Source: an uncultured Candidatus Saccharibacteria bacterium (lineage in GTDB: Bacteria > Patescibacteriota > Minisyncoccia > Phycocordibacterales > UBA5272). From it: a stretch of 64,000 bases of DNA. The position numbers and the translations under genes were made by a program. The DNA is taken from NCBI GenBank assembly GCA_964468825.1, contig CAYXWO010000001.1:3234-67233 (forward strand). The letters are read 5' to 3'. Of the stretch, positions 551-52,452 are shown one piece after another. Numbering within the stretch: position 1 is the first letter of the stretch; every line of letters begins with the position of its first letter. The notes below the pieces were generated by a model. The model saw only the letters and a program-made list of their open reading frames with translations. It was not told where the DNA came from and made no database searches.

Positions 551-578
551 TTGACAATAATCAATAAAATGTTATACT
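551..578 (+). promoter_or_regulatory. sigma70-like promoter (TTGACA-16nt-TATACT) of GC-rich cassette
   Basis: TTGACA at 551-556 and TATACT at 573-578, followed by GGAG and ATG at 618. Confidence 0.4.
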
Positions 579-617
579 ATTAAAACGGTCATGTGACCGT
601 GCATCTAGGAGAAATCC

Positions 618-788
618 ATGCGCTCCCGTTCCCCCTTCGTTGTTTCGGTTCCGTCCGTCGCGCAAGGCAGCAGCCATGGGCCGCCCTTCAGCAACATGAG
701 TGAAGCAAGCTACAACCCCCTGGGCGGCGCCCGCTGCGGCCTGGCCGATTTCAAGAAGACCTGCTGGAAGGCCGGCGCCCGCACCTGA
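618..788 (+). CDS. small hypothetical protein (56 aa), GC-rich foreign cassette
   Basis: ORF MRSRSPFVVSVPSVAQGSSHGPPFSNMSEASYNPLGGARCGLADFKKTCWKAGART, preceded by SD GGAG and a consensus promoter. It is below the 60-aa track cutoff. Confidence 0.3.
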   Translation: MRSRSPFVVSVPSVAQGSSHGPPFSNMSEASYNPLGGARCGLADFKKTCWKAGART

Positions 789-1161
789 ACGCGCGGCCGC
801 GGCCTGTCGGACTGGATGTCCAGAAAAACGCTTCGCTGCAACAATCTGTGAAGCGACCTCAGGACACCTTCCGACTACTCTCGGACCCCAGGCAAGTGTT
901 GCCTGCGGCCAACCAACCAAGGAGACTGAACACATGGTGCGATACCGCATCCGTCAGCTTTGCTGGCGATCCTCGATCGGCGCTCACCCGTGAGCCGCGA
1001 CGGTGCTAACAGGATGTCCTGTTAGCATTAACCAAAAAGGAGACAAATCCCCGAAGCCTTAAGCTTAGTCAGCGAGTAACATCGCCAAGACGGGGCTGAC
1101 AGGTTGGTAGCCACATTCGTCGTGAAAGCGACGAGGCCAAAAACAATACCCCCACGACGAA

Positions 1162-1190
1162 GGCCCGGAGAACCCGGGCCTTTTTTCTTT
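1162..1190 (+). terminator. rho-independent terminator (GGCCCGG-agaa-CCCGGGCC + T6)
   Basis: GC hairpin followed by a T-run. Confidence 0.6.
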
Positions 1191-1384
1191 TCCTGTATTA
1201 CGTAAACTGTAATATTTATTCATACTGTGCATAACTCTTGTTTTTTATAGAACGAAAATGATAGGCTTATGAATAGCAGGAGAAGGAGGAATCCAACTCA
1301 TGCCCGTGGAGATGAACGATCGGTTCACCTTACGGTGCATCGCTCTTTCGTTTTCAACTTCATCATTCTCACAGGAGACCCTCC

Positions 1385-1756
1385 ATGAAGAAACTGAGGC
1401 TTACCCTGGCAGCTTTCGCTGCCATCGCCCTGACCGGTACCGCTTTGGCCGCTTCAGCCGCAACGTTCGACGCCAAGACCGCGCCGCTCGCCGCCAACGC
1501 CAAGACCGCCGCGACGTTCACGCTGCATCCCTCCCTGTCCTCAACCGACTTCCAGGTGCTGTCCACCAAGGCCAAGAAGCCTTCCATGATCGCCGTGAAT
1601 GCAACGCCGTTCCCGTCGACCGTCGCCGACGGCGCACAAGACCTGGGCAAGATCGTCGCCAACGGTGGCACGCTGCAACTGCCGAACGGGCAAGTCCTGA
1701 TGAAGGCCTCCGACGCCGGCCGCGCTGGCTTGGCGCTCGGTCGCGCCGCAGGCTGA
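1385..1756 (+). CDS. small secreted protein (signal peptide), ~70% GC, foreign composition
   Basis: N-terminus MKKLRLTLAAFAAIALTGTALA-ASA looks like a signal peptide. SD AGGAGA sits 6 nt upstream. The 1300..1857 frame is Arg-rich and likely the wrong frame. Confidence 0.5.
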   Translation: MKKLRLTLAAFAAIALTGTALAASAATFDAKTAPLAANAKTAATFTLHPSLSSTDFQVLSTKAKKPSMIAVNATPFPSTVADGAQDLGKIVANGGTLQLPNGQVLMKASDAGRAGLALGRAAG

Positions 1757-1791
1757 CGCTGGGCAAGAATGGGCGTATGTCGCCCAACCAG

Positions 1792-1843
1792 CCGGATTCC
1801 AAACCCCTTCAACGGGAACGGAGTCCGGCTGTTTTGTTTTTCT
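1792..1843 (+). terminator. intrinsic terminator after secreted-protein ORF
   Basis: CCGGATTCC...GGAGTCCGG stem followed by a T-rich run. Confidence 0.45.
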
Positions 1844-1845
1844 GT

Positions 1846-1886
1846 ATTAACTATTAACCAGTAACTACTACCTAGTAACAGATCTC
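1846..1886 (+). promoter_or_regulatory. tandem heptad 'ATTAAC/AGTAAC-N' repeats upstream of TAGAGT-6nt-ATG
   Basis: ATTAACt ATTAACc AGTAACt ACTACCt AGTAAC. See finding. Confidence 0.35.
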
Positions 1887-1903: not shown

Positions 1904-3178
1904 ATGTTACAAAATCTTTTTAATAAGAAGCAGAAGAGAATCTATTTAGATAACGCAGGGGCAACTGAAATAGGAGAGCGCGCGAAGCGCGCTCTCCTCG
2001 AGGCTCTCGCAACATATGGAAACCCTTCTGGTATTCATAAGGAGGGGGCGGAGGCCAGTGTGCTTTTAGATAAAGCTCGCGCAATGTGTGCGACAGAGAT
2101 TAACGCACATGCATATGAGGTATATTTCGTGAGCTCAGGAACCGAGTCATGTAATTTAGCTATTCTTGGTACGTATTTCTCATTTTCTAAAAACGTAAAA
2201 CTTAAAACCGAAAACTCACCACTCCCTCATATCATTACCTCTTCTATTGAGCATCCTGCGATTCTCGAACCGATAAAAAGTCTAGAGAAAGAAGGAAAAA
2301 TCTCTGTCACATATTTACCTGTGTACGAAGATGGTATAGTCAAAGTGAGAGATGTTCGTGAAGCATTACGAGCAGAGACTATTTTAGTGAGTGTGATGTA
2401 TGCCAATAACGAAATAGGAACTATTCAGCCAGTAAAAGAAATTGGTCGTGCAATTGATGAGTGGAAAAAAGAAAATGAGAAGTCTTTCACAGAGTACCCA
2501 TACTTCCATACTGATGCATGTCAGGCAGCAAATTACTGTAACTTAGATGTGCTTCGTCTTAAGTGCCATCTCATGACAGTTAATAGTAGTAAGTGCTATG
2601 GTCCAAAAGGTTCAGCGCTTTTATATAAAAGAGAAGGAATAAGCCTTGACCCTGTCACATACGGTGGTGGGCAAGAGCGCACGCTCAGAAGTGGAACTGA
2701 GAATGTTTCAAGCGCATATGCGTTCGGTATCGCTTTAAAAGAGTCGCAGGAGATGAGAGAAAATGAAAGCGCGCGCTTACGCGCGCTTCGCGATGATGTA
2801 GTCAAAGATCTTAAGATTGCAATCCCAGAGATTATCTTCTACGGTGCGTTTGATGAGTATTCTAAGCTACCAGCTACCGCCTACAAGCTACATGCTGAAA
2901 AACGTCTCCCAAATAATATTAACTGTAGAGTTCCAGGCATCTCAAGCGAAGAGATGATTCTTCGGTTAGATGCGAAAGGTATAGCTGTCTCACACAAGAG
3001 TGCATGCGCTTCGATGGAGACTGACGGCAGTTATGTCCTTCAAGCTATTGGAACCACAGAAGATGAGGCGAAGGAAAATATTCGTATCAGTATGGGAAGG
3101 TCTACAGAAAGTAATGATATGAAGATACTTGTTGCAGCGATGAAGGAAATATCTGAGAAGTATAAGGTCATGAATTAG
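1904..3178 (+). CDS. cysteine desulfurase (class V aminotransferase, IscS/NifS family)
   Basis: Motifs SSGTES, HK..GPKG...LY, and PLP-fold layout. Confidence 0.85.
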   Translation: MLQNLFNKKQKRIYLDNAGATEIGERAKRALLEALATYGNPSGIHKEGAEASVLLDKARAMCATEINAHAYEVYFVSSGTESCNLAILGTYFSFSKNVKLKTENSPLPHIITSSIEHPAILEPIKSLEKEGKISVTYLPVYEDGIVKVRDVREALRAETILVSVMYANNEIGTIQPVKEIGRAIDEWKKENEKSFTEYPYFHTDACQAANYCNLDVLRLKCHLMTVNSSKCYGPKGSALLYKREGISLDPVTYGGGQERTLRSGTENVSSAYAFGIALKESQEMRENESARLRALRDDVVKDLKIAIPEIIFYGAFDEYSKLPATAYKLHAEKRLPNNINCRVPGISSEEMILRLDAKGIAVSHKSACASMETDGSYVLQAIGTTEDEAKENIRISMGRSTESNDMKILVAAMKEISEKYKVMN

Positions 3179-9395: not shown

Positions 9396-9749
9396 ATGAA
9401 TTTTATTATTATACGAACAATTGGAGTCCTAGCTGCCAGCTATGTTACTAAAGTCGGTGTACCACTTGCCTTTGGCACGTTTGCAATTTCTTTGAGCACC
9501 GCATGGGTTGCGCTTCTCGTGGCACTCGTACTTGCGGTTATTAACCATACGATTCGTCCGATTTTCATGCTCATCTCAATACCGGTCAACCTTCTCACTC
9601 TCGGACTTTTCTCTTTCGTTATTAACGGCCTCATGATACTTCTCGCAGATAAGATTGTTCCAGAGTTCTCTGTCCCGTCGCTTCTCATGGCTATCTACTT
9701 CTCGATAGTCCTTGCAGTTATTAACTGGGTATTACATTTTTTTGAGTAG
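9396..9749 (+). CDS. DUF360 / phage-holin-4-like membrane protein
   Basis: Three or four TM helices, with a pattern resembling the YvlD/holin_4_2 family. Confidence 0.5.
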   Translation: MNFIIIRTIGVLAASYVTKVGVPLAFGTFAISLSTAWVALLVALVLAVINHTIRPIFMLISIPVNLLTLGLFSFVINGLMILLADKIVPEFSVPSLLMAIYFSIVLAVINWVLHFFE

Positions 9750-9767
9750 GAGGGTATACTGGGCGAG

Positions 9768-9956
9768 CAGGCCGCTCTCGTGGTGTTCTGCGAAAAAACC
9801 AAGGCAACTTGCAACCTCTGCCACACCTTAGGCGAGGTATACATTCGGGTAGCGAGACCTCTCAGAATTTCTGATTGCGTCGACATACCGAAGGTTCTCA
9901 CTTCCAAGACAGACCAAGATCCTTCCCGAGGCCGCTCACGCGGCCTCTTTTTTATG
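9768..9956 (+). ncRNA. candidate GC-rich small RNA (unidentified) ending in an intrinsic terminator
   Basis: ~190 nt at ~58% GC with no ORF, starting after a TATACT hexamer at 9756-9761 and ending with GAGGCCGC-tcac-GCGGCCTC+T6. No match to SRP, tmRNA or RNase P consensus that I can verify by eye. Confidence 0.25.
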
Positions 9957-10015
9957 TAATTAGTAATGCAAAAGGGAGCACGAATGCTCCCTTTCTCACC
10001 ATTGGCCGTGAGACC

Positions 10016-10399
10016 TCAGTATTTGCGCGGACCGATGCGGTAGCACGCGATGTTTGCTACTAGATTCGCCACACCGAACGTCTTCGTCGCTTTGTTGAAG
10101 GCGAGATAGAGGAACGGCTGAAGAACTTCGGGCAGCTCATTGAAGTCCGTGGATGCCCAGTGATGACGGACCTCTTCGGTGACGTCGTCTGAATGGTTGA
10201 CCATGAAGCAATTCGTTTCCTCGAACCTGCAGGACTCAAGCACCGGGACCAGGTTCAGTACGCCGTCGATGACATCTCTGGTCTCTTCGAAAGTCATTTT
10301 GTACCAGAAGTCGTCATAGCCTTGGCCGTACCCGCAGAGGAATAAGACGTTTGGCAAGTACGAAGGGCTCATCGCCCTGGAGTTCATTGCGGTTGTCAT
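10016..10399 (-). CDS. hypothetical protein (127 aa), GC-rich foreign composition
   Basis: Complete ORF at ~55% GC, flanked by hairpin AAAGGGAGCA-cgaa-TGCTCCCTTT and an upstream -35/-10-like TTGACT/TAGTTT. Confidence 0.4.
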   Translation of the reverse strand: MTTAMNSRAMSPSYLPNVLFLCGYGQGYDDFWYKMTFEETRDVIDGVLNLVPVLESCRFEETNCFMVNHSDDVTEEVRHHWASTDFNELPEVLQPFLYLAFNKATKTFGVANLVANIACYRIGPRKY

Positions 10400-10689
10400 A
10401 GAGATCCATTTCTTTTCTGACGTGACGTGTCAGCCTGGCTCTAAACTATTCCAAGCTCAAGTAAAAGTCAAACGTCTAGACCCGCGTTCATAATGGAAAG
10501 AGATGAAGGAATATGTTAGAATTCGCGAATCAATAACTTCTAATTTATATTATTTATGTCACTCTCAATCGGCATGGAGCGAACACAAACCAACATTTCT
10601 TAAGTGTTGGAAATGAAAAACTTATACCGTTCCAGTTCAACATCAAGTTGCCTTTAAAATTAAATAGTTACGAGTAGGGGGGTAGGGCC

Positions 10690-11151
10690 ATGCTCTTTTC
10701 TAAGAAAACTCTTCAAAATATCCCTCACTGTTTCAAAGCGAGACCATTTTTAGAAATTGGTAATGTGCACTTTGATATACTTAGGATATACATGACAACA
10801 ATTAAGCAGAAAGTAGCACTAGAGAAACTAGTGGAAAACGGTGGTAACGTCACAAGAGCAATGATAGATGCTGGCTACTCAGAAGCAACAGCGAACAATC
10901 CCTCAAATTTGACTCATAGCGAGGGTTTTAGGTCTTTACTTAAGCAATATGGATTAGATGAAAGCTTAGTTGTTACGGCCCTTGTAGAGGATATTAAAGG
11001 TAAGCCATTGAATAGATCTAAGGAACTACTTCTTGCCTCAGAGATTTTAGGCATGAGAAAAAACGGAGCTCTCTCAATCAAAGTTCAAGATAATAAACCC
11101 GTAATTGTATATATGCCGCAGGTTCTCATCGAGAAGTTTCATCTTAATTAG
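10690..11151 (+). CDS. small-terminase-like HTH protein (Terminase_2 / SPP1 G1P-like 'AGYS' motif)
   Basis: 'LVENGGNVTRAMIDAGYSEATA' matches the TerS HTH (cf. SPP1 G1P 'LIDLNASRAAREAGYSPKTA'). Paralogous to the ORF at 19311-19826. Confidence 0.5.
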   Translation: MLFSKKTLQNIPHCFKARPFLEIGNVHFDILRIYMTTIKQKVALEKLVENGGNVTRAMIDAGYSEATANNPSNLTHSEGFRSLLKQYGLDESLVVTALVEDIKGKPLNRSKELLLASEILGMRKNGALSIKVQDNKPVIVYMPQVLIEKFHLN

Positions 11152-11300
11152 ACTCTTCTATTTTGATGTCTGTACACAGCATCCATAAGGCACAACAAAG
11201 CGTTTAACTCAGAGTAGGCTTTGTCGTTACTTATCTCAGTGCCATACTCTTGTCTGTAAATTTCCTTGTATCTCTCAATGTCTTTTTGAGCTATTTGCAT
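11148..11300 (-). CDS. small hypothetical ORF (50 aa), convergent with and stop-overlapping the TerS-like gene
   Basis: By-eye ORF MQIAQKDIERYKEIYRQEYGTEISNDKAYSELNALLCLMDAVYRHQNRRV. Below the track cutoff. Confidence 0.2.
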   Translation of the reverse strand: MQIAQKDIERYKEIYRQEYGTEISNDKAYSELNALLCLMDAVYRHQNRRV

Positions 11301-11376
11301 GTTATTTAAAAATTTATTATTTTGGCTATATTTTATGCTACTATATTAGAATCTAAAGACTCGTTTTAAAAGTAAA

Positions 11377-12789
11377 ATGACAAAAGAAGAAATAATTAAG
11401 AAGATAAAATACGGACTTGAAATAGCAAGTGAGCTTTCTGATCTTGAATTTAAAACAGCGACCAGCTCTATTCCAAATGATATCTGGCGAAGTATTTCAG
11501 CTTTTGCAAATCGAAGAGGTGGAGGCCTCATTGTCTTTGGAGTTGATGAGAGACAAAATGCAATCACTGGATGTGCAAATATTGATCAAATGCAAACAAA
11601 ACTCACAGAGATTTTTAATGACAAGATGAGTTTTATTTTGCGTCCTGAGTACCATGTAATCGATATTGATAATAAAACGATTCTTGCGGTAAATATTCCT
11701 GAGTGTCCAAAAGATTATATGCCTTGTTATTTTAAAAACGTAGGATTGCCCAACGGAGCATACATCAGAGAGGGGAATACGAGTAGAAAAATAACAGACA
11801 ACGAGTTTCGTACTTATGTTGCAACATCAAAAGAATTTCAATTTGATCTTTCCGAAGCCAGAGGGGCTAAGAGGGGTGATATTTCTGTAGATAAAGTCGA
11901 TGCGCTTTTACGGCAGAGTGAGTCTCAATTAAATAGGGGAGCTGATCACATTGTTAATGATTCTGTACTTGAAAATCTTGGAATAGTTTCTTTGTTCGAT
12001 GGTGAGTATAAGCCAACAATTGGGGGTTATTTAATTTTCGCAAAGGACATTCCTCAAAATAAAAGCCCTTATGATCGATATGCTGTGAGATGTATTCGTT
12101 ACATTGGTAGTGATCCTTCATCTGAGATAATTGATACTATTGATGTCGCCGGAACGCTTGATACTCAAATTGATGAAGCGTATAAATTTATCTTAAAAAA
12201 TATCTCTAAAAAAGCAGTCATTGTTGGAACTAAAAGAGTCGAGGGCTACGAGTATCCAGAGGCAGCTATTCGAGAACTTGTTGCTAATGCGGTTATACAT
12301 CGTGATTATAAAATTATTGAAACGTACACACAGATTAGAATTTTCCAGGATCGCATAGAAATTACTAATCCGGGATCGCTCCCGCCTGGAGTTAATGTTG
12401 ATAATCTTAAAGAAGCTCAGTTCAGTCGCAATTCAATGATTGCAGCAAGGTTGAAAGATATGAAATATCTTGAAGAGTACGGACGAGGTATTGATATTGT
12501 TGTTAAAAAAATGTCTGAATGGAGTTTGCCTTCACCTCTATTTAGAAATTCTGTAAACAGTTTTGAAGCGATACTCTTAGGTAATACTTATCAAGATATT
12601 AACGATAGACAAATAAAAATTATTGATGTTCTTTTGATTAAAGGTCGTTTGACTGCTGCTGACTGTTTGAAGATTCTAAAGGGAATACCTCGTGCGACAA
12701 TAAATGCAGATCTTAAAAAACTAAAAGACCTCGGTGTTATTGTCACAAAAGGTGCATCTGTGAACACGTATTACATGCTCGCTTTCTAG
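11377..12789 (+). CDS. Schlafen/AlbA_2 (divergent AAA) - HATPase_c_4 - wHTH protein ('RecG-like' transcriptional regulator family)
   Basis: N-terminal AlbA_2-like region, 'ELVANAVIHRDY' HATPase_c_4 motif, C-terminal HTH. Confidence 0.65.
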   Translation: MTKEEIIKKIKYGLEIASELSDLEFKTATSSIPNDIWRSISAFANRRGGGLIVFGVDERQNAITGCANIDQMQTKLTEIFNDKMSFILRPEYHVIDIDNKTILAVNIPECPKDYMPCYFKNVGLPNGAYIREGNTSRKITDNEFRTYVATSKEFQFDLSEARGAKRGDISVDKVDALLRQSESQLNRGADHIVNDSVLENLGIVSLFDGEYKPTIGGYLIFAKDIPQNKSPYDRYAVRCIRYIGSDPSSEIIDTIDVAGTLDTQIDEAYKFILKNISKKAVIVGTKRVEGYEYPEAAIRELVANAVIHRDYKIIETYTQIRIFQDRIEITNPGSLPPGVNVDNLKEAQFSRNSMIAARLKDMKYLEEYGRGIDIVVKKMSEWSLPSPLFRNSVNSFEAILLGNTYQDINDRQIKIIDVLLIKGRLTAADCLKILKGIPRATINADLKKLKDLGVIVTKGASVNTYYMLAF

Positions 12790-12993
12790 AAGCTTTTAGA
12801 AGCAATTTAAAAATGTATTGAAAACAAAGAGTTAATTATGCTTATTCTGGTCCTAATTATTTAGATGCGATTAGAAGCATTTCTTTCGGTCCAAAAATAA
12901 TCTAAAAAGTAAAAGGCACCCATTTAGGGTACCTCTCATGTCTAGTATTTACAGTTTACGCAACAGCGGTGCCTTAAATCAAATGGCAGGGAT

Positions 12994-13383
12994 TTAGATA
13001 ATTTCGATCAATTTAAGGAGTTCTTTCTCTCTTTCAGCTTTCAGTATTTGAGCACGCTTAGAAAGCTCTATGAGGGAGAATGGAGGTTTGACATTCATAT
13101 CCATTGTCTCCTTTGGTTTGCCTATTACTTGATTGAGGAGAAAAGCAGCGACTCTTGGGTCCGGTAATTGACGGTAGACAACCTTCTCTCCATTTTCATC
13201 CTCGGTCTCGTAGTAGGACCCTTTAGCAAGTTCAATCTGACCAGTCAAAATCGGCTCTAGTTCTTCAGCTATACGCGTAACAGCATATTTCCTCGCTTCC
13301 TCAGCTTTGATGCTTGCTAAGCCTCGTTTACGGCCCGCGCCAAGCCTTCTACCTCCTCGTGTCGTTGTTATCTCCATATCCAT
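12994..13383 (-). CDS. hypothetical protein with basic Gly/Arg-rich N-terminus (RGGRRLGAGRKRG)
   Basis: Complete ORF of host-like composition. The AT-hook-like N-terminus suggests DNA binding. Confidence 0.45.
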   Translation of the reverse strand: MDMEITTTRGGRRLGAGRKRGLASIKAEEARKYAVTRIAEELEPILTGQIELAKGSYYETEDENGEKVVYRQLPDPRVAAFLLNQVIGKPKETMDMNVKPPFSLIELSKRAQILKAEREKELLKLIEII

Positions 13384-13510
13384 ATTATATTACAAAATAA
13401 GGCGATTTTATAGCATAAAAGAATTGATTAAATCAAATAATCAAAATCTTTTAATTTAACAACATAAATAAATATTGCTATAATTTACCTTGATACATAA
13501 ATACTAAAAT

Positions 13511-13978
13511 ATGAAATTTGAGACCCCTAAATTTGAGACACCTAACTTTTTGAAAGAATTCACCATAAGTGAGGCACAGCAAGTGTCTGAGATTTTTAAA
13601 ACTAACCCACATGTTCGCTCTGTTAGTTTGATAGGAGCTGTAAAACAAACACAAAAAATGCACTCCCTGCGTTTTGTTATTGAAGTTGATAGTGATGAGT
13701 TGTTTCATAATTTCGCAGAAAGCTTTTCAAAAGAAAAAGGTGATGCAATTATTGCACCGGAGAGACGATTAGAAGCACTTTCACGCGTACTCGGAGACGA
13801 TTTACTATTTAAGATTGATGAGAGTTTTACTCATGATAAACATGCAGGAAATTTCATTGATGCAGTCATCGTTCCGCCAGGTTGGCAGTCAAAAATTGAC
13901 TTTGTTCAAAGCCGATTACCCTTTGACGATATAACGACAGCTGAACTTATTGATGCACTTAAACTGTCAGAATCATAA
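13511..13978 (+). CDS. hypothetical protein (155 aa); weak nucleotidyltransferase-like G[AS]...DxD pattern
   Basis: 'LIGAV...VIEVDSDE' only loosely resembles a minimal NTase motif. Confidence 0.4.
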   Translation: MKFETPKFETPNFLKEFTISEAQQVSEIFKTNPHVRSVSLIGAVKQTQKMHSLRFVIEVDSDELFHNFAESFSKEKGDAIIAPERRLEALSRVLGDDLLFKIDESFTHDKHAGNFIDAVIVPPGWQSKIDFVQSRLPFDDITTAELIDALKLSES

Positions 13979-14038
13979 TTAAGTGGAATTATTACCGAAC
14001 CTAGATTACCAATGCCTATTGACAAAACTATATAATGT

Positions 14039-14068
14039 GTGCTATAATAAAAAGAACAAAGCTCTTTA
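14039..14068 (+). promoter_or_regulatory. consensus sigma70 promoter TTGACA-18-TATAAT
   Basis: Perfect hexamers, then SD GGAGG and ATG at 14086. Confidence 0.4.
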
Positions 14069-14085
14069 ACTAACGGAGGTGTGTC

Positions 14086-14577
14086 ATGGAGGGAACTCCT
14101 TTGCTTATTTCGTATCTTAGCTTTTTCTTCCAAGCCTGGAAGAAAGCTTACAACCTCGGCTGGATATTTCACCGGATGGTGGAAGCTCACGGCATAGAGG
14201 TTGCGCTAGCCTTTTTTAAGGAGGCTGAAGCAGCAGGCTACCCACTGGTAGCGAAGGCTACTCGCGCGCACGCTGGTACTCCGTTCTTCTTGACGGTGGT
14301 CAACAAGAGGTTCTCTGATTGGGTGTTTGCAAAGACCCCAACAGAAGAAACTTTTGTGAAGAACGTTCTTGCGAACGCGCAAAGGCTTCAAGCCACAGAA
14401 GAGATGTGGGGTGCGGCCAGCAAGGAATGCGCAGAAGATCTGCGTCAACGTGGGTGGGAAGCACTTGATACCTTAGGTGGAAAGACCAAGGGGCTCAAGA
14501 TGAATCAGCTTCGCTACGATACTCGTGGGCGTAGGACCGGCAAGGGCGCACCAGAAAGAACCTGGGCAAAAAAATAA
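14086..14577 (+). CDS. hypothetical protein (163 aa), GC-rich cassette inside the island
   Basis: ~52% GC versus ~38% for neighbours, with its own promoter, SD and terminator. Confidence 0.45.
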   Translation: MEGTPLLISYLSFFFQAWKKAYNLGWIFHRMVEAHGIEVALAFFKEAEAAGYPLVAKATRAHAGTPFFLTVVNKRFSDWVFAKTPTEETFVKNVLANAQRLQATEEMWGAASKECAEDLRQRGWEALDTLGGKTKGLKMNQLRYDTRGRRTGKGAPERTWAKK

Positions 14578-14610
14578 GAAGATTGCAGTTTGCGCACTGC
14601 ATTCAGAGAA

Positions 14611-14638
14611 GTCGACCTGTCCCGGTCGGCTTTTTTTT
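14611..14638 (+). terminator. intrinsic terminator GTCGACC-tgtcc-CGGTCGGC+T8
   Basis: Hairpin followed by a T-run. Confidence 0.55.
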
Positions 14639-14677
14639 GTTACACTTTCAACATACTTAAGTTAAAATTATCTATCT

Positions 14678-17600
14678 ATGAACGACGAAGCACCTCGCCA
14701 CCCTTGGGGGTTTAGCGCTAACACAGAAAAGCCTCCAGTAGAATTAAGCGCTCTAGCTAAGGAGTGTGGTGTTTCTGAAAAGGAAATACGTGAAGTATTA
14801 ATAAAATTAGGATGTGCAAAGCCGGAGCGTAAAGATGTACTACGCCCGCGATCTGGTAAGCCTGCAATACGAAAATCGACCCTTACTTGCTTATCTGTAG
14901 ACGCAGAACAGGTGAGAAGATATTATAAAATCGAAAATGAATCCCCATCAGTAAATGAAAATGAAAAAGAGGTAACTCAAGATAACAAACCGCCTAAAAA
15001 CTGGCCTTCGCTCGGAAGATTAAGAATAAAATTGGGGCTTGAAAGAAGTGAAATTAGGTCTTGTCTTCATGAGGTGACACTATCTGGTTTGCGCTCTGGA
15101 TTAGCAAATACTCCATTTGGAGCTTTGGTGCAGAAAAGTACTTCAGAAATGACAGTTGAATATAATGGTGTCACTTATATTTCGCCAGAAGTTGCTGAAA
15201 GACTTACAGAGTTGTCTACAACAATTTTCAGAAAACGTGATGGAGGAAAGTATCTAGATGCTTCACAAGCAATTCAGGAGCTAGGACTCGCTGATGGTAA
15301 GCCAGAAGATGCGAATGAAAAATTAAAACAGGAAATAGACAATTTTCTACAAAAATATCCTTGGTTATCTAAGGAGATAGTTGAAAAAGCAGATATTGCT
15401 GGTGGTCCTGCTACAATATACTATTCAAGAGATTTGCTTTCTTTTATTCGTAAGATAAATGAAAGCGATAATAGCTTTGTGACTGCAACTGAAGATGTTC
15501 CGGAAGGGTATATATCTGAGCGAGACATAATAAACTCGTTAGAGCTATTTCCTTCTAAGTTAGAAGTACTTAAAAAGAAAGTTTTGACAGAAGTCACTCT
15601 AGAGAAACCTATTGTTGGACTTTTCAAGCCGGGGAGTAAAGCAAAAAAAATTGAATATTTTTATTCACCAGAGCTTTTTAAAAAAATTAGTGAACTAAAG
15701 ATTTTTGACGAATCTCTACGCGAAGAAACTCTCGACGAAAGTCAGGGAGAACTGATCGTATTTGATGTTGAAACAGAAACACCAGAAGGATATATTTCAA
15801 AAAGAGAGTGTATTTCTATACTGGACATAACCCCCGAAAAATTCGAGAGATTAGTCATGGAGGTGTCCCAGCATCATCCTGAATTTTCTCGCCCAACAGT
15901 AGCTATACCCAGAACAAATCGCTCATTGCGACCACGAATTTTTTATTCGCAAGAATTAATCAAAGCTATTTCTGAATTTAAGACAGCAAATGAAAAAGAC
16001 TCTCCAGTAGAAATAAAACAAGAGGCTATTCCAGAGGGTTATATATCTCTACTTGATTGCACTATTAGTTTAGGTATAAGCGCAAATAAAGTTCAACAGT
16101 TGGTAGATGAATGTCTTTATCTTCGACCAACACTAAAGCAAGAAGGGGTAATAAACAGAAGAAGAGGACAGTCTCGTGGCCTCAGTGTGTTTTACTCGCC
16201 TGAACTCGTGTCAGCAATAACTGAACTAAAACAAAAAAATGATAAACTTCAACGAGAAAAAATTGAAGATGCCCAGAGAATCCTAGAAGAAACAATAAAA
16301 TTAAAAGAAAGGCTAGCTTCTGTGCTCGATGATATAAGTCGAGGTTTGCCTGAAACCGCTCCCTTTAGGAGGGCTGTATCACTTTTCGGCGGAGCAAGAA
16401 CAATAGATCTTCTTAAAAAATTCTACCCCGAATTTGTAGAAATTCCAGCTCAATATATGCAAAAGGAGGTCGCTTCGTACTTAAGTGACTATATGGTTTC
16501 TCGTTCAGAAAATGTTATTGAAGACCTGGACGCAGCAGTACCCTTCCTTCATGAGAAAGTTTTTAGTGAGACCCTGTTTACTATCTTGAAAAATAACTGT
16601 GCGATCTACTATAGCAAAAAAAAGAGAGAGTCACGAGAGCGGACAGACCAGGAAATTCTAGATGAGTACTACTTAATATTGGAGCAAAAAGCTGAGTTAC
16701 TCAAGAGTAATGAACTTAGAGTGGTAGTTAAAGGCATTGAGGAATATATACAGTCATTACTTAATGATTTTCAAAAACCTGAAGCAATTGTCGATGAACT
16801 TAATGCTGGAAGAGAATTCCCTGACCTAAATCAAATTATTAATATCAAAGAGGTTGCAGATAATAGACATGTATTGATTGGAGATGAGATGGGAATGGGG
16901 AAAAGTGGGTCGGCTATTTTATCGAAAGAATACCTCGGAGTAAGTACCGCGATCGTCATTGCCCCAAGCAATGCAATTGATATGTGGAAAGAGTACTTAT
17001 CTGCTAACGTATCTCCATCTGGAAAGCAAGTCGGGTACTTTAAACCAGGGAAGGCACCTCGGGTTCTTGAAATTCAGAGTGTTGACGACTTAAGTAAAGC
17101 ACGAAGTCAGGAATACGATTATGTCCTTATATCTCACGATCGAATTAGTGAAGAACTAGCAACTAAATTAAGAGAGGTATCTTACGAGATGGTAATTGTT
17201 GATGAAGCGCATAAATTCAAAAATATTACTGGAGGCAAAAGATCTAACGCCTTGCTGGGCATGTTAGAGGATTGTGAAGATAGAGATACATACACAGTAC
17301 TCCTTTCGGGTACGCCAATTCCAAATAAAATTCGAGATATGGCTATAATTTTAAAATTATTATACCCAGACAGATTTGGGCATATGGATAACAACTTATT
17401 GGTTTCAAGTATTATTAGAGGAGATCTCACTGATTTGCGTGAGTTACTTCTATTAAGGACTCAGATGAAAAAACTATCTGAAAGTATTCAAATGCCGAAA
17501 AAAGAGGAACGGTTGGACTTTGTAACTTTATCTGAAGGAGAAAGGGAGCTTTATCAGGTAGTAATGGAAGATGATCAAATGAATTCCATGGAAAGGCTTT

Positions 17601-19261: not shown

Positions 19262-19310
19262 AAAGAGGCCTTATAGATTGAATACCAAGAGAAGTATTTA
19301 CATCTACGAA

Positions 19311-19826
19311 CTATTTCTCAACTATAATTCTCATACCTGTTATAGGCTCTACGAAACGATTCGTCTGTTCAATTTTTGCAGTTGAGTAATTACCTTTTAG
19401 CTTATGGGCCATATCAAGAGCAGCTTTAATCGCTTGAGTGTCTGGCACAGCATAGAAGGCGAGTTTTGCATTCCCAGAGGGGCGAATCGAAATGACGTAA
19501 AGACCACAGGATTCGAGATGTTCTCGTATCTCAGTATCTTCAAGATTTTTATCAAAAGAGATATAGGTAATATGCTTTTGGTTAAATAGTCTCTTGTGTT
19601 GGTCCATGATGTACTCATTCGGAAGAAACTCTTCTAAAAGAGTGGTCCAGTTCTCAGAGCTTGTGAGCTTACTTGGTGTTTTAATCGTTGCTTCTGAGTA
19701 ACCTGCTGTACGCATAGCCATAGTCACAGACCCACCATTTTCCACTAAAGCTTTCATTGCCTTCCTCTGTTTCGTTGTAGCCTTTGCCTTAATGATTTTA
19801 ATTGACTTTGTATCACTATTTACCAT
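19311..19826 (-). CDS. small-terminase-like HTH protein (paralog of 10690-11151), inverted orientation
   Basis: 'ALVENGGSVTMAMRTAGYSEATIKTPSKLTSSE' is ~50% identical to the ORF A N-terminus over ~50 aa. Nucleotide identity is also visible (ttagtggaaaatggtgg vs ctagtggaaaacggtgg). Confidence 0.5.
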   Translation of the reverse strand: MVNSDTKSIKIIKAKATTKQRKAMKALVENGGSVTMAMRTAGYSEATIKTPSKLTSSENWTTLLEEFLPNEYIMDQHKRLFNQKHITYISFDKNLEDTEIREHLESCGLYVISIRPSGNAKLAFYAVPDTQAIKAALDMAHKLKGNYSTAKIEQTNRFVEPITGMRIIVEK

Positions 19827-19900
19827 ACTTTAATGGTATCAAATTATTATATGAATCGCACTTTTTGAAAAGGTCTTACCAGAGTGGTACAATTCTAGAT

Positions 19901-20893: not shown

Positions 20894-20998
20894 AGCGAGT
20901 AATTTGAGTAGTACCTAGTAGTACTATCAATGGTACTTATGACATTCTTTCCAGCTATATAGCTCAAAGCTATCCACAGAAAAGTATGTATATATACG

Positions 20999-21025
20999 AA
21001 AAAGCCTAATATCTAAGGCTTTTTC
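20999..21025. terminator. bidirectional hairpin AAAAAGCCT-aatatct-AAGGCTTTTT
   Basis: Perfect stem flanked by A and T runs. Confidence 0.55.
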
Positions 21026-21044
21026 TTTATGCGAAAGTCGTCCC

Positions 21045-21239
21045 ATGGACGATAAGAAAGCGCAAAAAGAAATCAAGGTGAGTTATCAGGAGGTATCTGA
21101 TGACCCGGAAGTAATCAATCAAAAAATTGAGGAGGCTTTTGATGCGCTATTTGAAATCGTCTATAAAAATTATTGGTTAGACATTCAAAACTATGGCACA
21201 ACAAAACAAAGACGAGATCTTGGCGAAGAAGCTGAGTGA
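21045..21239 (+). CDS. small hypothetical protein (64 aa), paralog of the next ORF
   Basis: Shares an 'h..YxK/N-YWL' motif with the ORF at 21193-21384. The two overlap by 47 nt in different frames. Confidence 0.3.
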   Translation: MDDKKAQKEIKVSYQEVSDDPEVINQKIEEAFDALFEIVYKNYWLDIQNYGTTKQRRDLGEEAE

Positions 21240-23431: not shown

Positions 23432-23453
23432 TTTATAAGGTGGATAATGCTTT

Positions 23454-29732: not shown

Positions 29733-29834
29733 AAACCCGTCGCCGACTGGCACGAGAGAACGCCACTGACAATGGCGTTTTCATTTTGTAAAAATTATCT
29801 AGAATCTCAGACTTCTTTTTGTTATAATCAGAAA

Positions 29835-45867: not shown

Positions 45868-46002
45868 GAGGTAGATGTTAGATTCTAGATGAAACAAAAA
45901 GAAAAGCGCGACCTTCGGTCGCGCTTTTCTTTTACTTTCTCTCAACTCTCTAGTAGTATTGTTTATATCTAAGGCTGTTCTTTATACAAGAAGGGGGTAA
46001 CA

Positions 46003-46599
46003 ATGACACCGGAAGTCGAACATCTACTAGCGAGATGCGGGCTATCATCTCAAGTCGAAGAGTGTGTGAATGACATACTTTCAAGGGCTCCAAGTGAGCT
46101 CACTAATCGACTGATGGCTGCCCTGCGTGAAGTTCAGGGCAGCTCAGTACTGTTCCCTCGGCTCGAAAGGGGCAGGTGGTATGTGGTGGCGCCTGCGACT
46201 TTAGCTGACCCGCCTCGTTGTCTTCTGGGTGAGGTGTTTATCAACGGCGTCGTCACCTTCCCGGACCTTGAGCACCCACCTGCAAGCTGCTCAAAGAAAG
46301 AAAGGGAGGAGTTCGACAAACTTTATGCCAACACATTTCTGGAAAAGTTACAACAGATCCAGAATTATGCGACAGCTCTTGCTCGTGCACACGAACTGAG
46401 TGAGGCAGGGAATGAAATGTTGGCACACGCTAAAGACTTTCTCGTGCTCAGTATCTATCACGCGGAGAGGAACCATGACACAAGCGGGAGCGCAGATAGG
46501 AGAGATGAACTTGCTCCGCATATTGAGAAAATGAAAAGCTGCCTCTCCGCGCTTCGAGCAGAGCAAAAGAGACGGCACGAAGAAAAAGGCTCCCAGTGA
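46003..46599 (+). CDS. hypothetical protein (198 aa), GC-rich (~57%) foreign cassette
   Basis: Own SD (AAGAAGGGGG) and terminator GGCTCCCAGTGAGCC+T7. Flanked by a host-type terminator upstream. Confidence 0.45.
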   Translation: MTPEVEHLLARCGLSSQVEECVNDILSRAPSELTNRLMAALREVQGSSVLFPRLERGRWYVVAPATLADPPRCLLGEVFINGVVTFPDLEHPPASCSKKEREEFDKLYANTFLEKLQQIQNYATALARAHELSEAGNEMLAHAKDFLVLSIYHAERNHDTSGSADRRDELAPHIEKMKSCLSALRAEQKRRHEEKGSQ

Positions 46600-46694
46600 G
46601 CCTTTTTTTGTTGTAAGTACGCATTCTTTAATGACGTCTTTCCTTTTCTACTTAAAAGAGTAGAATACGTATATTTATAGGTAATTAAGAAAGT

Positions 46695-49896: not shown

Positions 49897-49917
49897 ATAA
49901 GGTCTTTGTGTGCATTT

Positions 49918-50400
49918 TTACTGAAGCTTTTGCTGCTCATTTAGCCTTCGGCGCCGTCTTGACCTTGTGAAGTCTTGAGCCAGAGAAAACCAGCCAATCG
50001 GAATGTCATCCTTGTCTTCGTAGAGGGAAGCTGGTACAACCTCAAACGAGTCACACAAGGTTTCCAGTACCTCTGCTTCAGAGTGATGTAAAAGCACCAC
50101 TCGCTCCTTCATTAGTACTGACCCTCGTCCAATCATCATCATGAGGAGCGACGAGAAGATGTCAGAAAATGCTTCAGTCTCATTGGCCACTATATCTGCT
50201 TCTTGATGGATGAGAATGAACCCACAGCAATCCAGTATTTCAGAAGCCTTCATATGTGAGCCGTAGAAGTCCTTCACAGAAACTGGAAGGGCAGTGCTCG
50301 ATGCCTCTTCAAGCGCTCTGCTCATTCTATCCAAAAAAATTGGATTGGCGTAAGCGACAACTACGATCTCTAAAGAACCTGTCATTCTCGAAATGTTCAC
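49918..50400 (-). CDS. hypothetical protein (~160 aa; GTG start after AGGAGG)
   Basis: The track ORF uses a TTG start at 50439. The GTG at 50400 with AGGAGG 5 nt upstream is the better start. ~47% GC. Confidence 0.4.
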   Translation of the reverse strand: MNISRMTGSLEIVVVAYANPIFLDRMSRALEEASSTALPVSVKDFYGSHMKASEILDCCGFILIHQEADIVANETEAFSDIFSSLLMMMIGRGSVLMKERVVLLHHSEAEVLETLCDSFEVVPASLYEDKDDIPIGWFSLAQDFTRSRRRRRLNEQQKLQ

Positions 50401-50471
50401 GGGGACCTCCTGTGTTTTGAGTTTAGCGTATGCTACCAAAAATATACCTTTTTTGCTATAATAAAATTTCT

Positions 50472-51887
50472 ATGCGTACGTATATTAAAGATATTTCTTC
50501 ATCTGTGGGTCAGGAGGTTGTTGTAAAAGCCTGGGTTGACGTCCGTCGCGATCAAGGCAAAATGGTCTTTTTGGACCTTCGTGATGTGACTGGGAAGGTT
50601 CAGGGAGTGGTGCTTCCTAACCATGCAGAAGCACTCGAAGTAGCTCAAAAGCTTCGTACCGAGTGGGTTGTCGAGGTGAAAGCTCAGGTGAACAAGCGAC
50701 CAGACAGAAACATTAAGGCAGGTATCTTAAATGGAGATATGGAACTAGAAGTCCTCTCTATCGCAGTTCTGAATGAAGCGACAACGCCAGCTTTTGATAT
50801 CTCAACTGATGGTCATGAAATAGGCGAAGAGGTGAGACTAGAGAAGAAGTACCTCGACCTTCGTCGCGCCCGACTCCAGAGAAACATACAGATGCGTCAC
50901 AAGGTGATTAAGCTCGTTCGTGATGAGCTCGATACGCAAAACTTTTTTGAAATCGAAACGCCACTTCTCACTAACCCGACACCAGAAGGCTCACGTTCGT
51001 ACCTCGTACCATCTCGCCTTTGGCAAGGATCTTTCTATGCGCTCCCTCAGTCCCCTCAACAGTATAAGCAGCTTCTCATGTCATCAGGTTTTGAGAGATA
51101 TTTCCAGATTGCTAAATGTATGCGTGATGAGGACACTCGTGGTGATCGTCAGCCTGAGTTCACTCAGATGGACATGGAAATGAGTTTCGTGGAAAGAGAA
51201 GATGTAATGAAGGTGAACGAAGATCTGCTAGTAAAGATTGTTACGACACTTTTCCCTGAGAAAAAGATACAAGAGACACCTTTCCCTCGTTTTACCTACA
51301 AGGAAGTCATGGAGAAATACAACTCCGACAAGCCTGACATCAGAGAAGACAAGAATGACCCTAACTTACTTGCATTTTGTTGGGTGACAGACTTTCCTGC
51401 TTTTGAAAAGACCGGGGAGGATAACGTGGATGACACAGGCGCGTGGACATTTACCCATAACCCATTCACCGGAGTTTTAAATGACTACAAGAACGATCTT
51501 CTTGAAAAGAAAAATATCGAGAATATTATTTCTACACAATATGACATCGCACTTAATGGGTATGAGATCGGTGGAGGGGGCATTAGACTTCATGACCCGG
51601 TAGCACTACGCCGTGTATTTGAAATCATGGGATACTCTGAAGAGAGAATTAATCAGAACTTCGGCCACATGCTAGAAGCGCTCGGCTCAGGTACTCCACC
51701 ACACGGTGGTATCGCTTGGGGTCTTGATCGCCTCCTTATGATTCTGCTTAACGAGCCTAATATTCGTGAAGTAATGGCGTTCCCAAAGACAGGGGAAGGG
51801 AGAGATTTACTCATGCAGGCCCCGTCGCCGGCTGCTCCAAAGGTGCTCCGTGAGCTTGGTATAGAAGTTAAAAATAAGGGTAAATAA
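50472..51887 (+). CDS. aspS: aspartate--tRNA ligase (short, GAD-insertion-less form)
   Basis: OB-fold N-domain and class II motifs 'FQIAKCMRDEDTRGDRQPEFTQMDMEMSF'. Confidence 0.85.
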   Translation: MRTYIKDISSSVGQEVVVKAWVDVRRDQGKMVFLDLRDVTGKVQGVVLPNHAEALEVAQKLRTEWVVEVKAQVNKRPDRNIKAGILNGDMELEVLSIAVLNEATTPAFDISTDGHEIGEEVRLEKKYLDLRRARLQRNIQMRHKVIKLVRDELDTQNFFEIETPLLTNPTPEGSRSYLVPSRLWQGSFYALPQSPQQYKQLLMSSGFERYFQIAKCMRDEDTRGDRQPEFTQMDMEMSFVEREDVMKVNEDLLVKIVTTLFPEKKIQETPFPRFTYKEVMEKYNSDKPDIREDKNDPNLLAFCWVTDFPAFEKTGEDNVDDTGAWTFTHNPFTGVLNDYKNDLLEKKNIENIISTQYDIALNGYEIGGGGIRLHDPVALRRVFEIMGYSEERINQNFGHMLEALGSGTPPHGGIAWGLDRLLMILLNEPNIREVMAFPKTGEGRDLLMQAPSPAAPKVLRELGIEVKNKGK

Positions 51888-51922
51888 AAGCGAGCTAAGT
51901 CCTAAAGGGGTTTGCGTCGTAG

Positions 51923-51950
51923 TTGACTTTGCATGCATTAGTGGTATAAT
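51923..51950 (+). promoter_or_regulatory. near-consensus promoter TTGACT-16-TATAAT of GC-rich cassette
   Basis: Hexamers at 51923-28 and 51945-50, then SD AGGAGA and ATG at 52002. Confidence 0.4.
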
Positions 51951-52001
51951 AATAACACTGCCGTTTTGGCATTGTTGTTGTTTACATAGGAGACAGGTTC
52001 A

Positions 52002-52400
52002 ATGAAAAAATGGTTCCTTAATCATTTTCGGCTGGTGGCCGCTGCAGCATTCTTTTGCCTTGCGGGTTGGGCCGGGAAACAGGCCTTGGCACAGACATCG
52101 TCTGACCAGGGTGATCGCCCCCGTGTGATGAAGTTCACTTACGTCAAGAGCAAAGAGTCATGCATCGATGTTTTTACTCGTCTTGACGAGAAAGTGAGCA
52201 TCTCAGACTGCATCAAGGCAGCAGAACGCGTCGGGATCGACGTGATGTGGTATCGTCCAGATATCACCAAACCACCGACCTACATCCTCAACATCCATCC
52301 TGGTGACAAGGTTGGCGTATATGTGGATGGGGACAAAAAGACCATGATCATTTTTCCGAGGGAGCATGTTCGCAATCTGTCGCATCCTATTGCTCAGTGA
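52002..52400 (+). CDS. small secreted/lipoprotein-like protein (132 aa), GC-rich (~55%) cassette
   Basis: Signal peptide MKKWFLNHFRLVAAAAFFCLAGWAG, with its own promoter and terminator. Confidence 0.45.
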   Translation: MKKWFLNHFRLVAAAAFFCLAGWAGKQALAQTSSDQGDRPRVMKFTYVKSKESCIDVFTRLDEKVSISDCIKAAERVGIDVMWYRPDITKPPTYILNIHPGDKVGVYVDGDKKTMIIFPREHVRNLSHPIAQ

Positions 52401-52411
52401 GTTGGGTGCGG

Positions 52412-52452
52412 TAGATAGCCCGTTTACGCGATGCGTAATCGGGCTATCTTTT
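52412..52452 (+). terminator. intrinsic terminator GATAGCCCG...CGGGCTATC+T
   Basis: 9-bp stem followed by TTTTTAT. Confidence 0.55.

Follow-up and report, generated by a model that had tools for sequence, protein, structure and literature searches.

Native GC-rich, Shine-Dalgarno-led transcription units in the chromosome of a Paceibacteria-type bacterium: a probable class of moron-like accessory units

The chromosome of an uncultured bacterium deposited as a Candidatus Saccharibacteria (contig CAYXWO010000001.1) contains, in the 64,000-nucleotide stretch analyzed here (the window), small GC-rich transcription units (units 1 to 10) that are scattered between core genes. They are probably native, lineage-restricted, moron-like accessory transcription units of the Paceibacteria chromosome, which would provide fast-evolving interaction factors and small regulatory RNAs. 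A unit typically consists of its own promoter, a leader of 30-110 nt with a Shine-Dalgarno (SD) sequence, one small open reading frame (ORF) or small RNA, and its own terminator, the whole set in an intergenic slot between core genes. The units belong to the genome in which they are found, several hold the same position in related species, their ORFs are orphans or nearly so, their SD-led starts contrast with those of the core genes, and their alleles diverge while purifying selection acts within allele classes. What the units do, where their DNA came from and why it is GC-rich is inferred. Proteins are named below by their length (C123 is the 123-aa product of unit 2), and related loci and contigs by L numbers.

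The window has a GC content of 42.3% over 64 kb, and nearly all of its genes are on the + strand. The ClpB encoded here shares 82-91% identity with that of uncultured freshwater metagenome-assembled genomes (MAGs) labelled Parcubacteria, Paceibacterota or "Saccharibacteria", and the closest ClpB loci all come from Paceibacteria or Parcubacteria MAGs. Because of these relatives the organism is, judged by this protein, an uncultured freshwater, Paceibacteria-type member of the Patescibacteria (candidate phyla radiation, CPR). The neighbours of the units are housekeeping genes, namely those for DUF4446, cysteine desulfurase, SOD, ClpB, MsrA, RNase HII, HIT and YchF, together with an extracytoplasmic function (ECF) sigma factor, AlaS, GrpE-DnaK-DnaJ and aminoacyl-tRNA synthetases.

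Composition of the units

The set comprises seven small protein genes, two small-RNA units (9750-9956 and 26496-26647), and the gene for C163, which is cargo of an integrative element. In 200-nt windows the GC fraction is 0.66-0.69 at 601-1800 and 0.50-0.60 at 9800-10400, 14100-14600, 28900-29800, 46000-46600 and 52000-52400, and the GC-richness covers entire units, untranslated regions included. At third codon positions (GC3) the separation is complete, with 0.51-0.81 for the cassette ORFs versus 0.26-0.49 for all 51 host ORFs. The two ORFs nearest the window start (618-788 and 1385-1756) each have a GC3 of 0.81; the value is 0.72 for the minus-strand ORF at 10016-10399, 0.53 for 14086-14577, 0.58 for 28717-29340, 0.63 for 29499-29732, 0.51 for 46003-46599, and 0.57 for 52002-52400. 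The GC-rich units within a lower-GC genome that had been described in the original prediction are thus real. Codon periodicity is clear at 618 to about 880 and at 1440-1740, and both stretches are therefore coding; there is none at 880-1190.

As had been claimed, the units are unrelated to each other (a comparison of unit with unit finds no similarity), and no host gene is disrupted by any of them. No unit ORF has a Pfam match above threshold; C132 has a sub-threshold match to a MazE/AbrB-like family. Rfam 15 finds only a tRNA-Tyr (6835-6919) in the window, with no unit matched at the gathering threshold or at E<=5. The gathering search of six relatives returns only tRNAs and one threshold-level BjrC68, and their slot units, described below, are without a match.

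Expression signals of the units and of the core genes

The units and the core genes also differ in how translation would begin. Strong SD sequences, predicted to be rare in host genes, precede 8/9 cassette ORFs, with anti-SD duplex energies of -7.3 to -12.6 kcal/mol; only 1/51 host ORFs reaches that level. The same division is seen in the relatives, where an SD is present at 11/27 called genes without a Pfam domain versus 3/56 with one (p = 1.5e-4). At 15/43 core genes the ATG is preceded, at a distance of 5-12 nt, by the end of a -10-like hexamer, as against 0/8 units and 8.8% of random positions. Upstream of the cysteine desulfurase gene, a TG-n-TAGAGT box or a close variant lies 6-10 nt before the ATG both in the window and in five related species. 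The -10 boxes of the units are 34-110 nt upstream, giving leaders of 30-110 nt. The E. coli-like look of the units would thus arise because they specify leadered mRNAs that need an SD, in a genome whose core genes appear to be mostly leaderless or SD-less.

Tandem TAAC(T/C)AG heptads are present before core genes at 1843-1882, 3990-4029, 7726-7765, 31824-31863 and 53647-53686, and the last two copies are followed by TATACT about 6 nt before the ATG. Together with the absence of an SD, the heptads suggest leaderless mRNAs and possibly a lineage-specific promoter element.

Other signals set the units apart less clearly. A near-consensus TTGACA/TATAAT promoter had been predicted for each unit, and this holds for three or four: the scan finds such promoters only at 551 (11/12), 14019 (12/12) and 51923 (11/12), unit 6 has TTGACA-17-TTAATA at 26496, and the remaining unit promoters match at 9/12 positions or fewer. 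A further 12/12 promoter, at 23453, belongs to the integrative element itself. The claim that each unit has its own terminator is borne out for most, with terminators found by the scan at 1159, 9928, 26614, 29387 and 29756 and the remaining ones readable by eye. However, terminators are no mark of foreign origin, because those of host genes at 6762 and 45897 are equally clean.

The literature searched contains nothing pertinent on SD-led or leaderless initiation, or on GC-rich small proteins, in CPR/Patescibacteria, and no description was found there of an association of SD-led starts with orphan, small, GC-rich, fast-evolving genes.

Independent assemblies and natural variation

In the original prediction the units were considered not native, and engineered inserts, chimeric assembly or contamination, and very recent horizontal transfer were offered as possible origins. 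Independent assemblies speak to the first two. An ENA contig (L001) equals window positions 1287-2697 at 99.1%, and two Logan contigs equal 912-2091 at 99.3% (L002) and 7982-12566 at 100% (L003); each of the three spans junctions between GC-rich and host DNA. Variant alleles of the units are present in other samples (L084, L085-L090, L171-L174 and L177), and assemblies from different runs and archives differ by single-nucleotide polymorphisms (SNPs) and indels, so that metagenome assemblies from ENA, Logan, NCBI and JGI contain the units in polymorphic form. When looked up by exact sequence, the 163-, 207-, 198- and 132-aa ORFs and ClpB fall on a single 68,219-bp NCBI contig; such look-ups return no record of the cysteine desulfurase or ClpB of the window as called genes. 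A blastn search of 551-1850 against phage and plasmid DNA finds nothing.

Because units and junctions alike reappear, naturally polymorphic, in independent assemblies, the units are native, and to the extent that assemblies can decide the matter, neither engineering nor chimeric assembly nor contamination explains them. The cassettes are present in independent bins and ORFs match lineage-specific families, both of which the original prediction had named as findings that would count against its own reading. What does hold from that reading is that the units are distinct from the core genes in composition and regulation.

Synonymous divergence (dS) between adjacent genes varies from 0.01 to 1.0 when window 40785-55902 is compared with L085 (0.009 for GrpE, 1.0 for AspRS), and frequent homologous recombination in the population therefore follows from this mosaic.

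The slot between DUF4446 and cysteine desulfurase

Units 1 and 2 lie in a hypervariable slot. Its left border is the gene for DUF4446 (1..462, minus strand; Pfam PF14584, E=1.5e-32), a host gene cut by the window start, which also borders the slot in L177. On the right is the gene for cysteine desulfurase (Aminotran_5; 1904..3178, plus strand), with a TAGAGT -10 box 6 nt before the ATG, a leaderless-type start; its arrangement is as in the window in five relatives. Slot units are 60-74% GC in every related species examined, and those of the window have no nucleotide or tblastx similarity to those of the related species.

Unit 1 (551..1190, plus strand) consists of a promoter (551-578, TTGACA-16-TATACT), an SD (AGGAG, 607-611), a 56-aa ORF (618-788), a hairpin-rich non-coding RNA of about 400 nt (789-1158), and a terminator (1159-1190). 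Counterparts are found in L006, L008, L009 and L011, where a TTGACA-type promoter and the SD context are kept and the ORFs, of 47 to 141 aa, are unrelated; the unit is absent in L013 and L177. The start context reads AGGAGAAATCC(C)ATG in the window and in L009, and AGGAGAATTCCCATG in L006. Downstream of each unit-1 ORF lie 370-570 nt of GC-rich RNA whose predicted fold is much more stable than those of dinucleotide-shuffled sequences, with z scores of -6.6 for the window and -7.4, -5.0 and -5.1 for three counterparts. The hairpin-rich regions that are equivalent by position (window 789-1190, L008 6097-6560, L009 4933-5300 and L011 7000-7575) contain many near-perfect hairpins and have no common sequence. 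ARAGORN and Rfam were negative for unit 1 as a tmRNA or RNase P RNA.

Given this architecture, it is possible, though the balance of evidence leans the other way, that unit 1 (and perhaps unit 5, encoding C163) is primarily an RNA gene, which specifies a strongly transcribed, GC-rich multi-hairpin RNA of about 0.6 kb at a conserved position with the short ORF incidental or secondary. Such a gene would explain strong folding without common sequence in the 3' parts, the loss of codon periodicity after about 880, and the unrelated ORFs at the unit-1 position. C163 is consistent with it as well: the RNA of its ORF alone folds exceptionally well (z = -6.7), into a closed multibranch structure, and the AlphaFold2 (AF2) single-sequence model of the protein has a pLDDT of 50. 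However, such a model is uninformative for an orphan, the SD context of the 56-aa ORF is kept across species, and this ORF has a GC3 of 0.81 and clear periodicity. The lack of an Rfam match and the hairpins themselves, which are mostly perfect and so untypical of old structured RNAs, also argue against an RNA gene.

Unit 2 (1237..1850, plus strand) contains a promoter (CTTGTTTT..AAAATGATAGGCTT, 1237-1268), a leader of about 110 nt, an SD, an ORF at 1385-1756, and a terminator at about 1790-1845. The ORF encodes a 123-aa protein with a signal peptide and is 66% GC. By pattern search, the promoter is common to L002, L009, L013 and L084, and it is readable in L177 too; promoter and leader start are kept in the window, L084, L009, L013 and L177. 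Behind it there is always a gene for a signal-peptide protein with a GC3 of 0.81-0.88. C123 itself has a single relative, at 75% identity. When the window is compared with L084, the flanks of unit 2 are 97-100% identical, while the ORF has clustered changes, a ratio of nonsynonymous to synonymous change (dN/dS) of 0.86, and indels of 9, 21 and 3 nt, all in-frame. Between L013 and L177, similarly, the flanks are 94-100% identical versus 22-68% for the body of the ORF.

The protein family of L013 has only five relatives. Homology of C123 to the L013/L009 family in the slot is unsupported, since BLASTP gives E=0.076 and the hhalign match is confined to the signal peptide. Within the L013 family (L013 2791-3336, L177 6001-6510, and P0042-P0046), two alternative C-termini are present, GTGGQYRAGLAHRQVA.. 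and GTGAQFTLTAASRSPA.., in proteins that are otherwise 94% identical; this looks like a frameshift polymorphism.

A second ORF of 185 aa (window 1300-1857) overlaps the 123-aa gene in another frame. Its start follows a run (AGGAGAAGGAGG) that resembles an SD of exceptional strength and stands where the unit-2 leader begins; a similar run (AGCAGGAGGGAG) is present at the equivalent position in L177 and L013. Instead of being a gene, this may be a leader element with a regulatory role.

Relatives also have large GC-rich (56-63% GC) orphan ORFs on the minus strand, of 581 aa in L008 (792-2537) and 572 aa in L011 (2520-4238), which have no Pfam domain and are unrelated to one another. The Rfam match to BjrC68, a Bradyrhizobiaceae small RNA, is at L008 730-794, outside the slot, with 39.3 bits against a threshold of 39.

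Protein units between core genes: C207, C77, C198 and C132

Unit 7 (28650..29425, plus strand) has a 207-aa ORF (28717-29340) with the SD AGGAGG, one N-terminal hydrophobic helix, and a terminator at 29387-29413. C207 occurs as two allele classes that are only 25-28% identical, in strains whose neighbouring protein p147 is 91-95% identical; within a class, dN/dS is 0.22-0.47. The gene is absent in L150.

Unit 8 (29415..29790, plus strand) follows, with a 77-aa Cys-rich ORF (29499-29732) and a terminator at 29756-29782. The C77 family has the motif CQxPxCxGxxGxCxWxxVCP, in which the cysteines are conserved, and members lie before alaS in L089, L091, L144 and L150, each one SD-led. Their GC3 declines from 0.63 in the window and 0.62 in L089 to 0.44 in L091 and 0.32 in L150, and polarised changes in the L091 copy amount to a net loss of GC.

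Unit 9 (45940..46616, plus strand) contains a 198-aa ORF (46003-46599) with the SD AAGGGGG and a terminator at 46585-46612. The C198 family has 7 representatives, at 22-38% identity, among the 1.84 billion of the HMMER library. Orthologues lie directly after dnaJ in L175 and L176 and are 22% and 37% identical, as against 80-85% for DnaJ there. These orthologues keep the SD and are AT-rich like their own genomes, with a GC3 of 0.31-0.34. The AF2 model of C198 is helical with a pLDDT of 88, and a fold search of the PDB finds no match with E<0.001.

Unit 10 (51923..52452, plus strand) consists of a promoter (TTGACT-16-TATAAT), the SD AGGAG, a 132-aa ORF (52002-52400), and a terminator at about 52415-52450. 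The product had been called lipoprotein-like; C132 has a signal-peptide-like N-terminus, but by inspection there is no L-x-x-C lipobox, and this description is dropped. The gene is present in the close strains L085-L087. At the same slot L175 has a 111-aa ORF that looks secreted and gives no more than a marginal match, whereas L176 has an unrelated 76-aa SD-led ORF. For C207, C198 and C132, dS is lower than that of their neighbours.

C127, the integrative element and C163

Unit 4 (9957..10480, minus strand) contains a 127-aa ORF (10016-10399) and a terminator at about 9970-9998. C127 has only two homologues, P0029 (75%) and P0030 (65%), which are located between a holin-like gene and ychF in genomes without the mobile element; because of this position in element-free genomes, C127 is considered chromosomal rather than cargo of the element. 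Behind the holin-like gene, the slot is unoccupied in L089, is filled by another SD-led ORF in L150, and contains C127 in L171 and L173. The gene is under purifying selection (dN/dS 0.21-0.25 at a dS of 0.7-1.0). Between the window and L171 its dS is 0.97, versus 0.12-0.22 for its neighbours, the holin and HIT genes. When third-position changes in C127 are polarised, 18 are AT>GC and 36 are GC>AT, compared with a ratio near 1:1 in flanking host genes; GC3 is 0.66-0.72 in three lineages after a dS of 0.7-1.0.

The integrative element (10568..25316, about 14.7 kb), identified from Pfam matches and empty sites, is inserted in the first ~20 nt of ychF and leaves an orphaned ychF start, ATGTCACTCTCAATCGGCAT, at 10568-10587. 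Empty sites are present in L089, L171 and L173. Pfam domains in the element identify a Schlafen/AlbA_2 protein (11377-12789), an SNF2 helicase fused to a methyltransferase (14678-19261), a PrimPol-AAA_25 protein (21320-23431), and a large serine recombinase (23661-25316). Unit 5 (14019..14640, plus strand) is carried within it and has a consensus promoter (14019-14048), the SD GGAGG, a 163-aa ORF (14086-14577), and a terminator at about 14612-14640. C163 is a singleton cluster with no relatives.

Small-RNA units

Units 3 and 6 are candidates for conserved small RNAs. Unit 3 (9731..9956, plus strand) is a candidate non-coding RNA of about 190 nt with its own -10 box, TATACT, and a terminator at 9928-9953. 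It is 99% identical in L171 and about 78% identical in L173, where indels of 4, 1 and 3 nt break any frame, and its earlier description as ORF-less is thus confirmed. The fold z is -2.7, with compensatory changes at three pairs.

Unit 6 (26496..26647, plus strand) has the TTGACA-17-TTAATA promoter, an invariant CAGUUGCC motif, and a terminator at 26614-26645. It lies between ychF and the ECF sigma-factor gene, just upstream of the sigma operon, as it does in six other loci (L089 7530-7680, L091 6784-6920, L092 6650-6756, L100 5331-5430, L144 6977-7117 and L150 7404-7543), all of which keep a TTGACA-type promoter, CAGUUGCC, and the terminator. A consensus structure recovers the terminator alone. 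The unit had been read as either a small RNA or a 43-aa peptide; the RNA is conserved and the ORF is not, so the first option stands. L091 (5890-6290) and L144 (6575-6830) have two to three tandem copies of the ychF 3' end with its terminator, and L091 (about 6290-6590) has a minus-strand, GC-rich, SD-led, Gly-rich ORF of which only a remnant is present in L089, L144 and L150.

Elsewhere in the window, the tRNA-Tyr gene sits between two long perfect hairpins with AT-rich arms and GC cores (6762-6804 and 6921-6961; region 6735-6961).

Origin of the units and of their GC-richness

The predicted products of the units include a secreted protein (C123), a secreted-looking one (C132), a membrane-anchored one (C207), a Cys-rich one (C77) and a helical one (C198), all of them orphans or members of tiny families found in Paceibacteria contexts. 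They may be expressed conditionally and mediate interactions with host cells, competitors or phages. The units change much faster than their neighbours, and divergent alleles would be swapped by homologous recombination through conserved flanks. Near-identical flanks around a divergent ORF are seen for L013 versus L177, for the window versus L084, and for the window versus L171. Position is also kept in related species, where C198 again follows dnaJ, C77 stands ahead of alaS, and units fill the DUF4446/cysteine desulfurase slot; homologues with readable context are all in Paceibacteria (one relative for C123, two for C127, and five for the L013 family).

The GC-richness itself may reflect import, at different times, from an unsampled GC-rich gene pool that uses SD sequences. 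The oldest imports would now be partly or fully ameliorated, and the slot next to cysteine desulfurase would have been refilled repeatedly. Slow amelioration of old imports is suggested because changes in C127 favour GC>AT and because C77 of L091 loses GC, and it fits the gradient from slot units at 66% GC to the host-like orthologues of C198 and C77.

Several observations weigh against this proposal. No donor or GC-rich relative is found in 5.8 billion protein clusters, in the 1.84-billion-representative HMMER library (searched with C198 only), in IMG/VR (scanned with C198, C163 and C127, with no match), or in phage and plasmid DNA. A GC3 of 0.81-0.88 persists in slot ORFs even between species in which the genes on either side have fallen to about 70% identity, and such persistence, in C127 as in the slot ORFs, would be expected from active maintenance no less than from repeated import. 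Nor is the set uniform. C198 occurs in every relative seen and hence does not interrupt a pair of genes that are neighbours elsewhere, two of the units are conserved RNAs, and RNA may also be the active form of the 3' 400 nt of unit 1 and possibly of C163. Finally, a 16S rRNA 3' end, which would show the anti-SD, is absent from all loci searched for it, and it is promoter geometry rather than mapped 5' ends that points to core mRNAs of this lineage being leaderless or nearly so.

An unlikely alternative is that the units are vertically inherited hypervariable genes whose GC was made and is kept in place, for example by GC-biased gene conversion at recombination hot spots or by selection on the transcript, rather than being a foreign remnant. 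It would account for the positional orthology of unit 2, C127, C77, C207 and C198 and for the failure to find a donor. It is also consistent with recombination breakpoints that flank the ORFs, with the dS mosaic among strains (0.01 to 1.0), with a dS below that of the neighbours for C207, C198 and C132, with a GC3 still high after a dS of about 1, and with GC-richness that extends through the entire unit, untranslated regions included. A reported association of recombination with higher GC3 in bacteria (PMC4450053) counts in its favour. However, the polarised changes in C127 and in C77 of L091 are a net loss of GC, and the C198 orthologues of L175 and L176 match their genomes in AT-richness despite evolving equally fast. 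A GC3 of 0.8-0.9 on a background of 0.38 would also need a bias far stronger than any described. Neither mRNA structure nor translational selection is supported as the cause, since ORF RNAs of the units are not more structured than those of the host (mean fold z -0.77 versus -0.82) and the highly expressed ribosomal protein genes are not GC3-rich.

A bolder variant, which we consider a long shot, is that the genus keeps a separate class of leadered, SD-dependent, GC-rich, hypervariable units at fixed slots behind conserved promoters, including a hairpin-packed RNA of about 0.6 kb that is conserved in architecture and not in sequence. The GC would then be functional rather than historical, with transcripts or products tuned, for example, to work on or inside a GC-rich host bacterium of the episymbiont, or it would be kept by strong biased conversion at hot spots of cassette exchange.

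Very recent transfer from a sampled high-GC bacterium, for example a proteobacterial or actinobacterial host of the episymbiont, was already weakened and is highly improbable. Codon usage of units 1 and 2 (CTG, GCC, ACC, GGC, AAG) does resemble that of high-GC bacteria, SD-led genes do stand out in an SD-poor genome, and in L008 the Bradyrhizobiaceae small-RNA match adjoins a GC-rich orphan ORF. But that match barely passes its threshold, homologues are found in Paceibacteria contexts and nowhere else, the regulatory flanks are conserved across species, and divergence within the lineage is deep, with a dS of up to 1. Of the original suggestion of very recent transfer of self-contained units, what survives is that the units are self-contained and foreign-looking in composition and that C163 is on a mobile element; what tells against it are the positional orthologues (C198, C77, C207, C127 and the slot next to cysteine desulfurase), the lack of a donor, and the two conserved small RNAs. 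Engineered inserts, chimeric assembly or contamination, which had only appearance in their favour (sharp GC steps and a textbook promoter-SD-terminator layout), are refuted as far as assemblies can show, given junction-spanning assemblies that differ by SNPs and indels, related species with the same architecture, and no likeness to plasmid or phage records.

Implications and comparison with known systems

The reading of the units as native, moron-like accessory units has practical consequences. Sharp GC steps and a textbook layout in a CPR MAG are not evidence of chimerism or engineering, and filters for binning or decontamination that are based on composition would wrongly remove such genes. 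For Paceibacteria, a two-tier gene organisation is suggested, in which a leaderless, SD-less core stands beside leadered, SD-dependent, fast-evolving orphans in exchangeable slots. The units are prime candidates for the molecules that ultra-small episymbionts use in their dealings with hosts, rivals and phages. Bacterial genes of recent acquisition tend to be AT-rich; a GC-rich anomaly with no detectable donor is thus unusual and provides a natural test case of amelioration versus GC-biased conversion. The two conserved small RNAs and the long region of hairpin-rich RNA add candidates to a phylum for which, to our knowledge, almost no regulatory RNAs have been described.

Diversity-generating retroelements (DGRs) are common in CPR bacteria, and their targets resemble the units in having hypervariability within a small ORF between conserved flanks. 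However, the window contains no template repeat of any unit, the variation, which in a DGR target would be limited to substitutions at template adenines, includes indels and lies in the N-terminal and middle part of the ORF, and a Pfam scan limited to the element genes and the unit ORFs finds no reverse transcriptase. Integron cassettes are likewise small, unrelated, single-ORF segments of deviant composition, but they are promoterless, bear attC sites, and are arrayed by intI, whereas the units have their own promoters, no common repeat, and a scattered distribution. No repeat family is present among the units, and the only recombinase is the serine recombinase of the element. ORFan accessory genes and hypervariable loci for secreted or surface proteins under diversifying selection resemble the units, with orphan or tiny families, fast amino-acid divergence, divergent alleles within near-identical flanks, and signal peptides or anchors; the units differ from them by their GC-richness and by a mode of translation initiation unlike that of the core genome. 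Genomes with mixed leaderless and SD-led initiation have been modelled by GeneMarkS-2 (PMC6028130), and they have two start classes as well. Here, the SD-led class consists of orphan, small, GC-rich, fast-evolving genes.

The nearest likeness is to phage morons, defined (as quoted in PMC4378225) as a lone coding region equipped with a promoter and a terminator, located between genes that are adjacent in related genomes, deviant in composition, and acquired by a mechanism given as unknown. Like the morons of the lambdoid phages HK97 and HK022, the 8 ORF units have their own promoter and terminator (near-consensus promoters in only 3-4), and their composition is similarly deviant (GC3 0.51-0.81 versus 0.26-0.49). 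Insertion between adjacent genes is seen for the slot after the holin-like gene (empty in L089), for C207 (absent in L150) and for unit 1 (absent in L013 and L177), but not for C198. Unlike morons, the units do not reside in a phage: their neighbours are genes for ClpB, AlaS, DnaK/DnaJ and aminoacyl-tRNA synthetases, IMG/VR is negative, and only C163 is in a mobile element, the integrative element described above. Furthermore, the units are GC-richer than their host whereas morons are AT-richer, C198 and C77 are conserved residents, and two of the units encode RNAs. The finding is best classed as a form of moron-like accessory unit that is chromosomal and specific to CPR bacteria, in a gene set that appears to be divided into leaderless and SD-led members.

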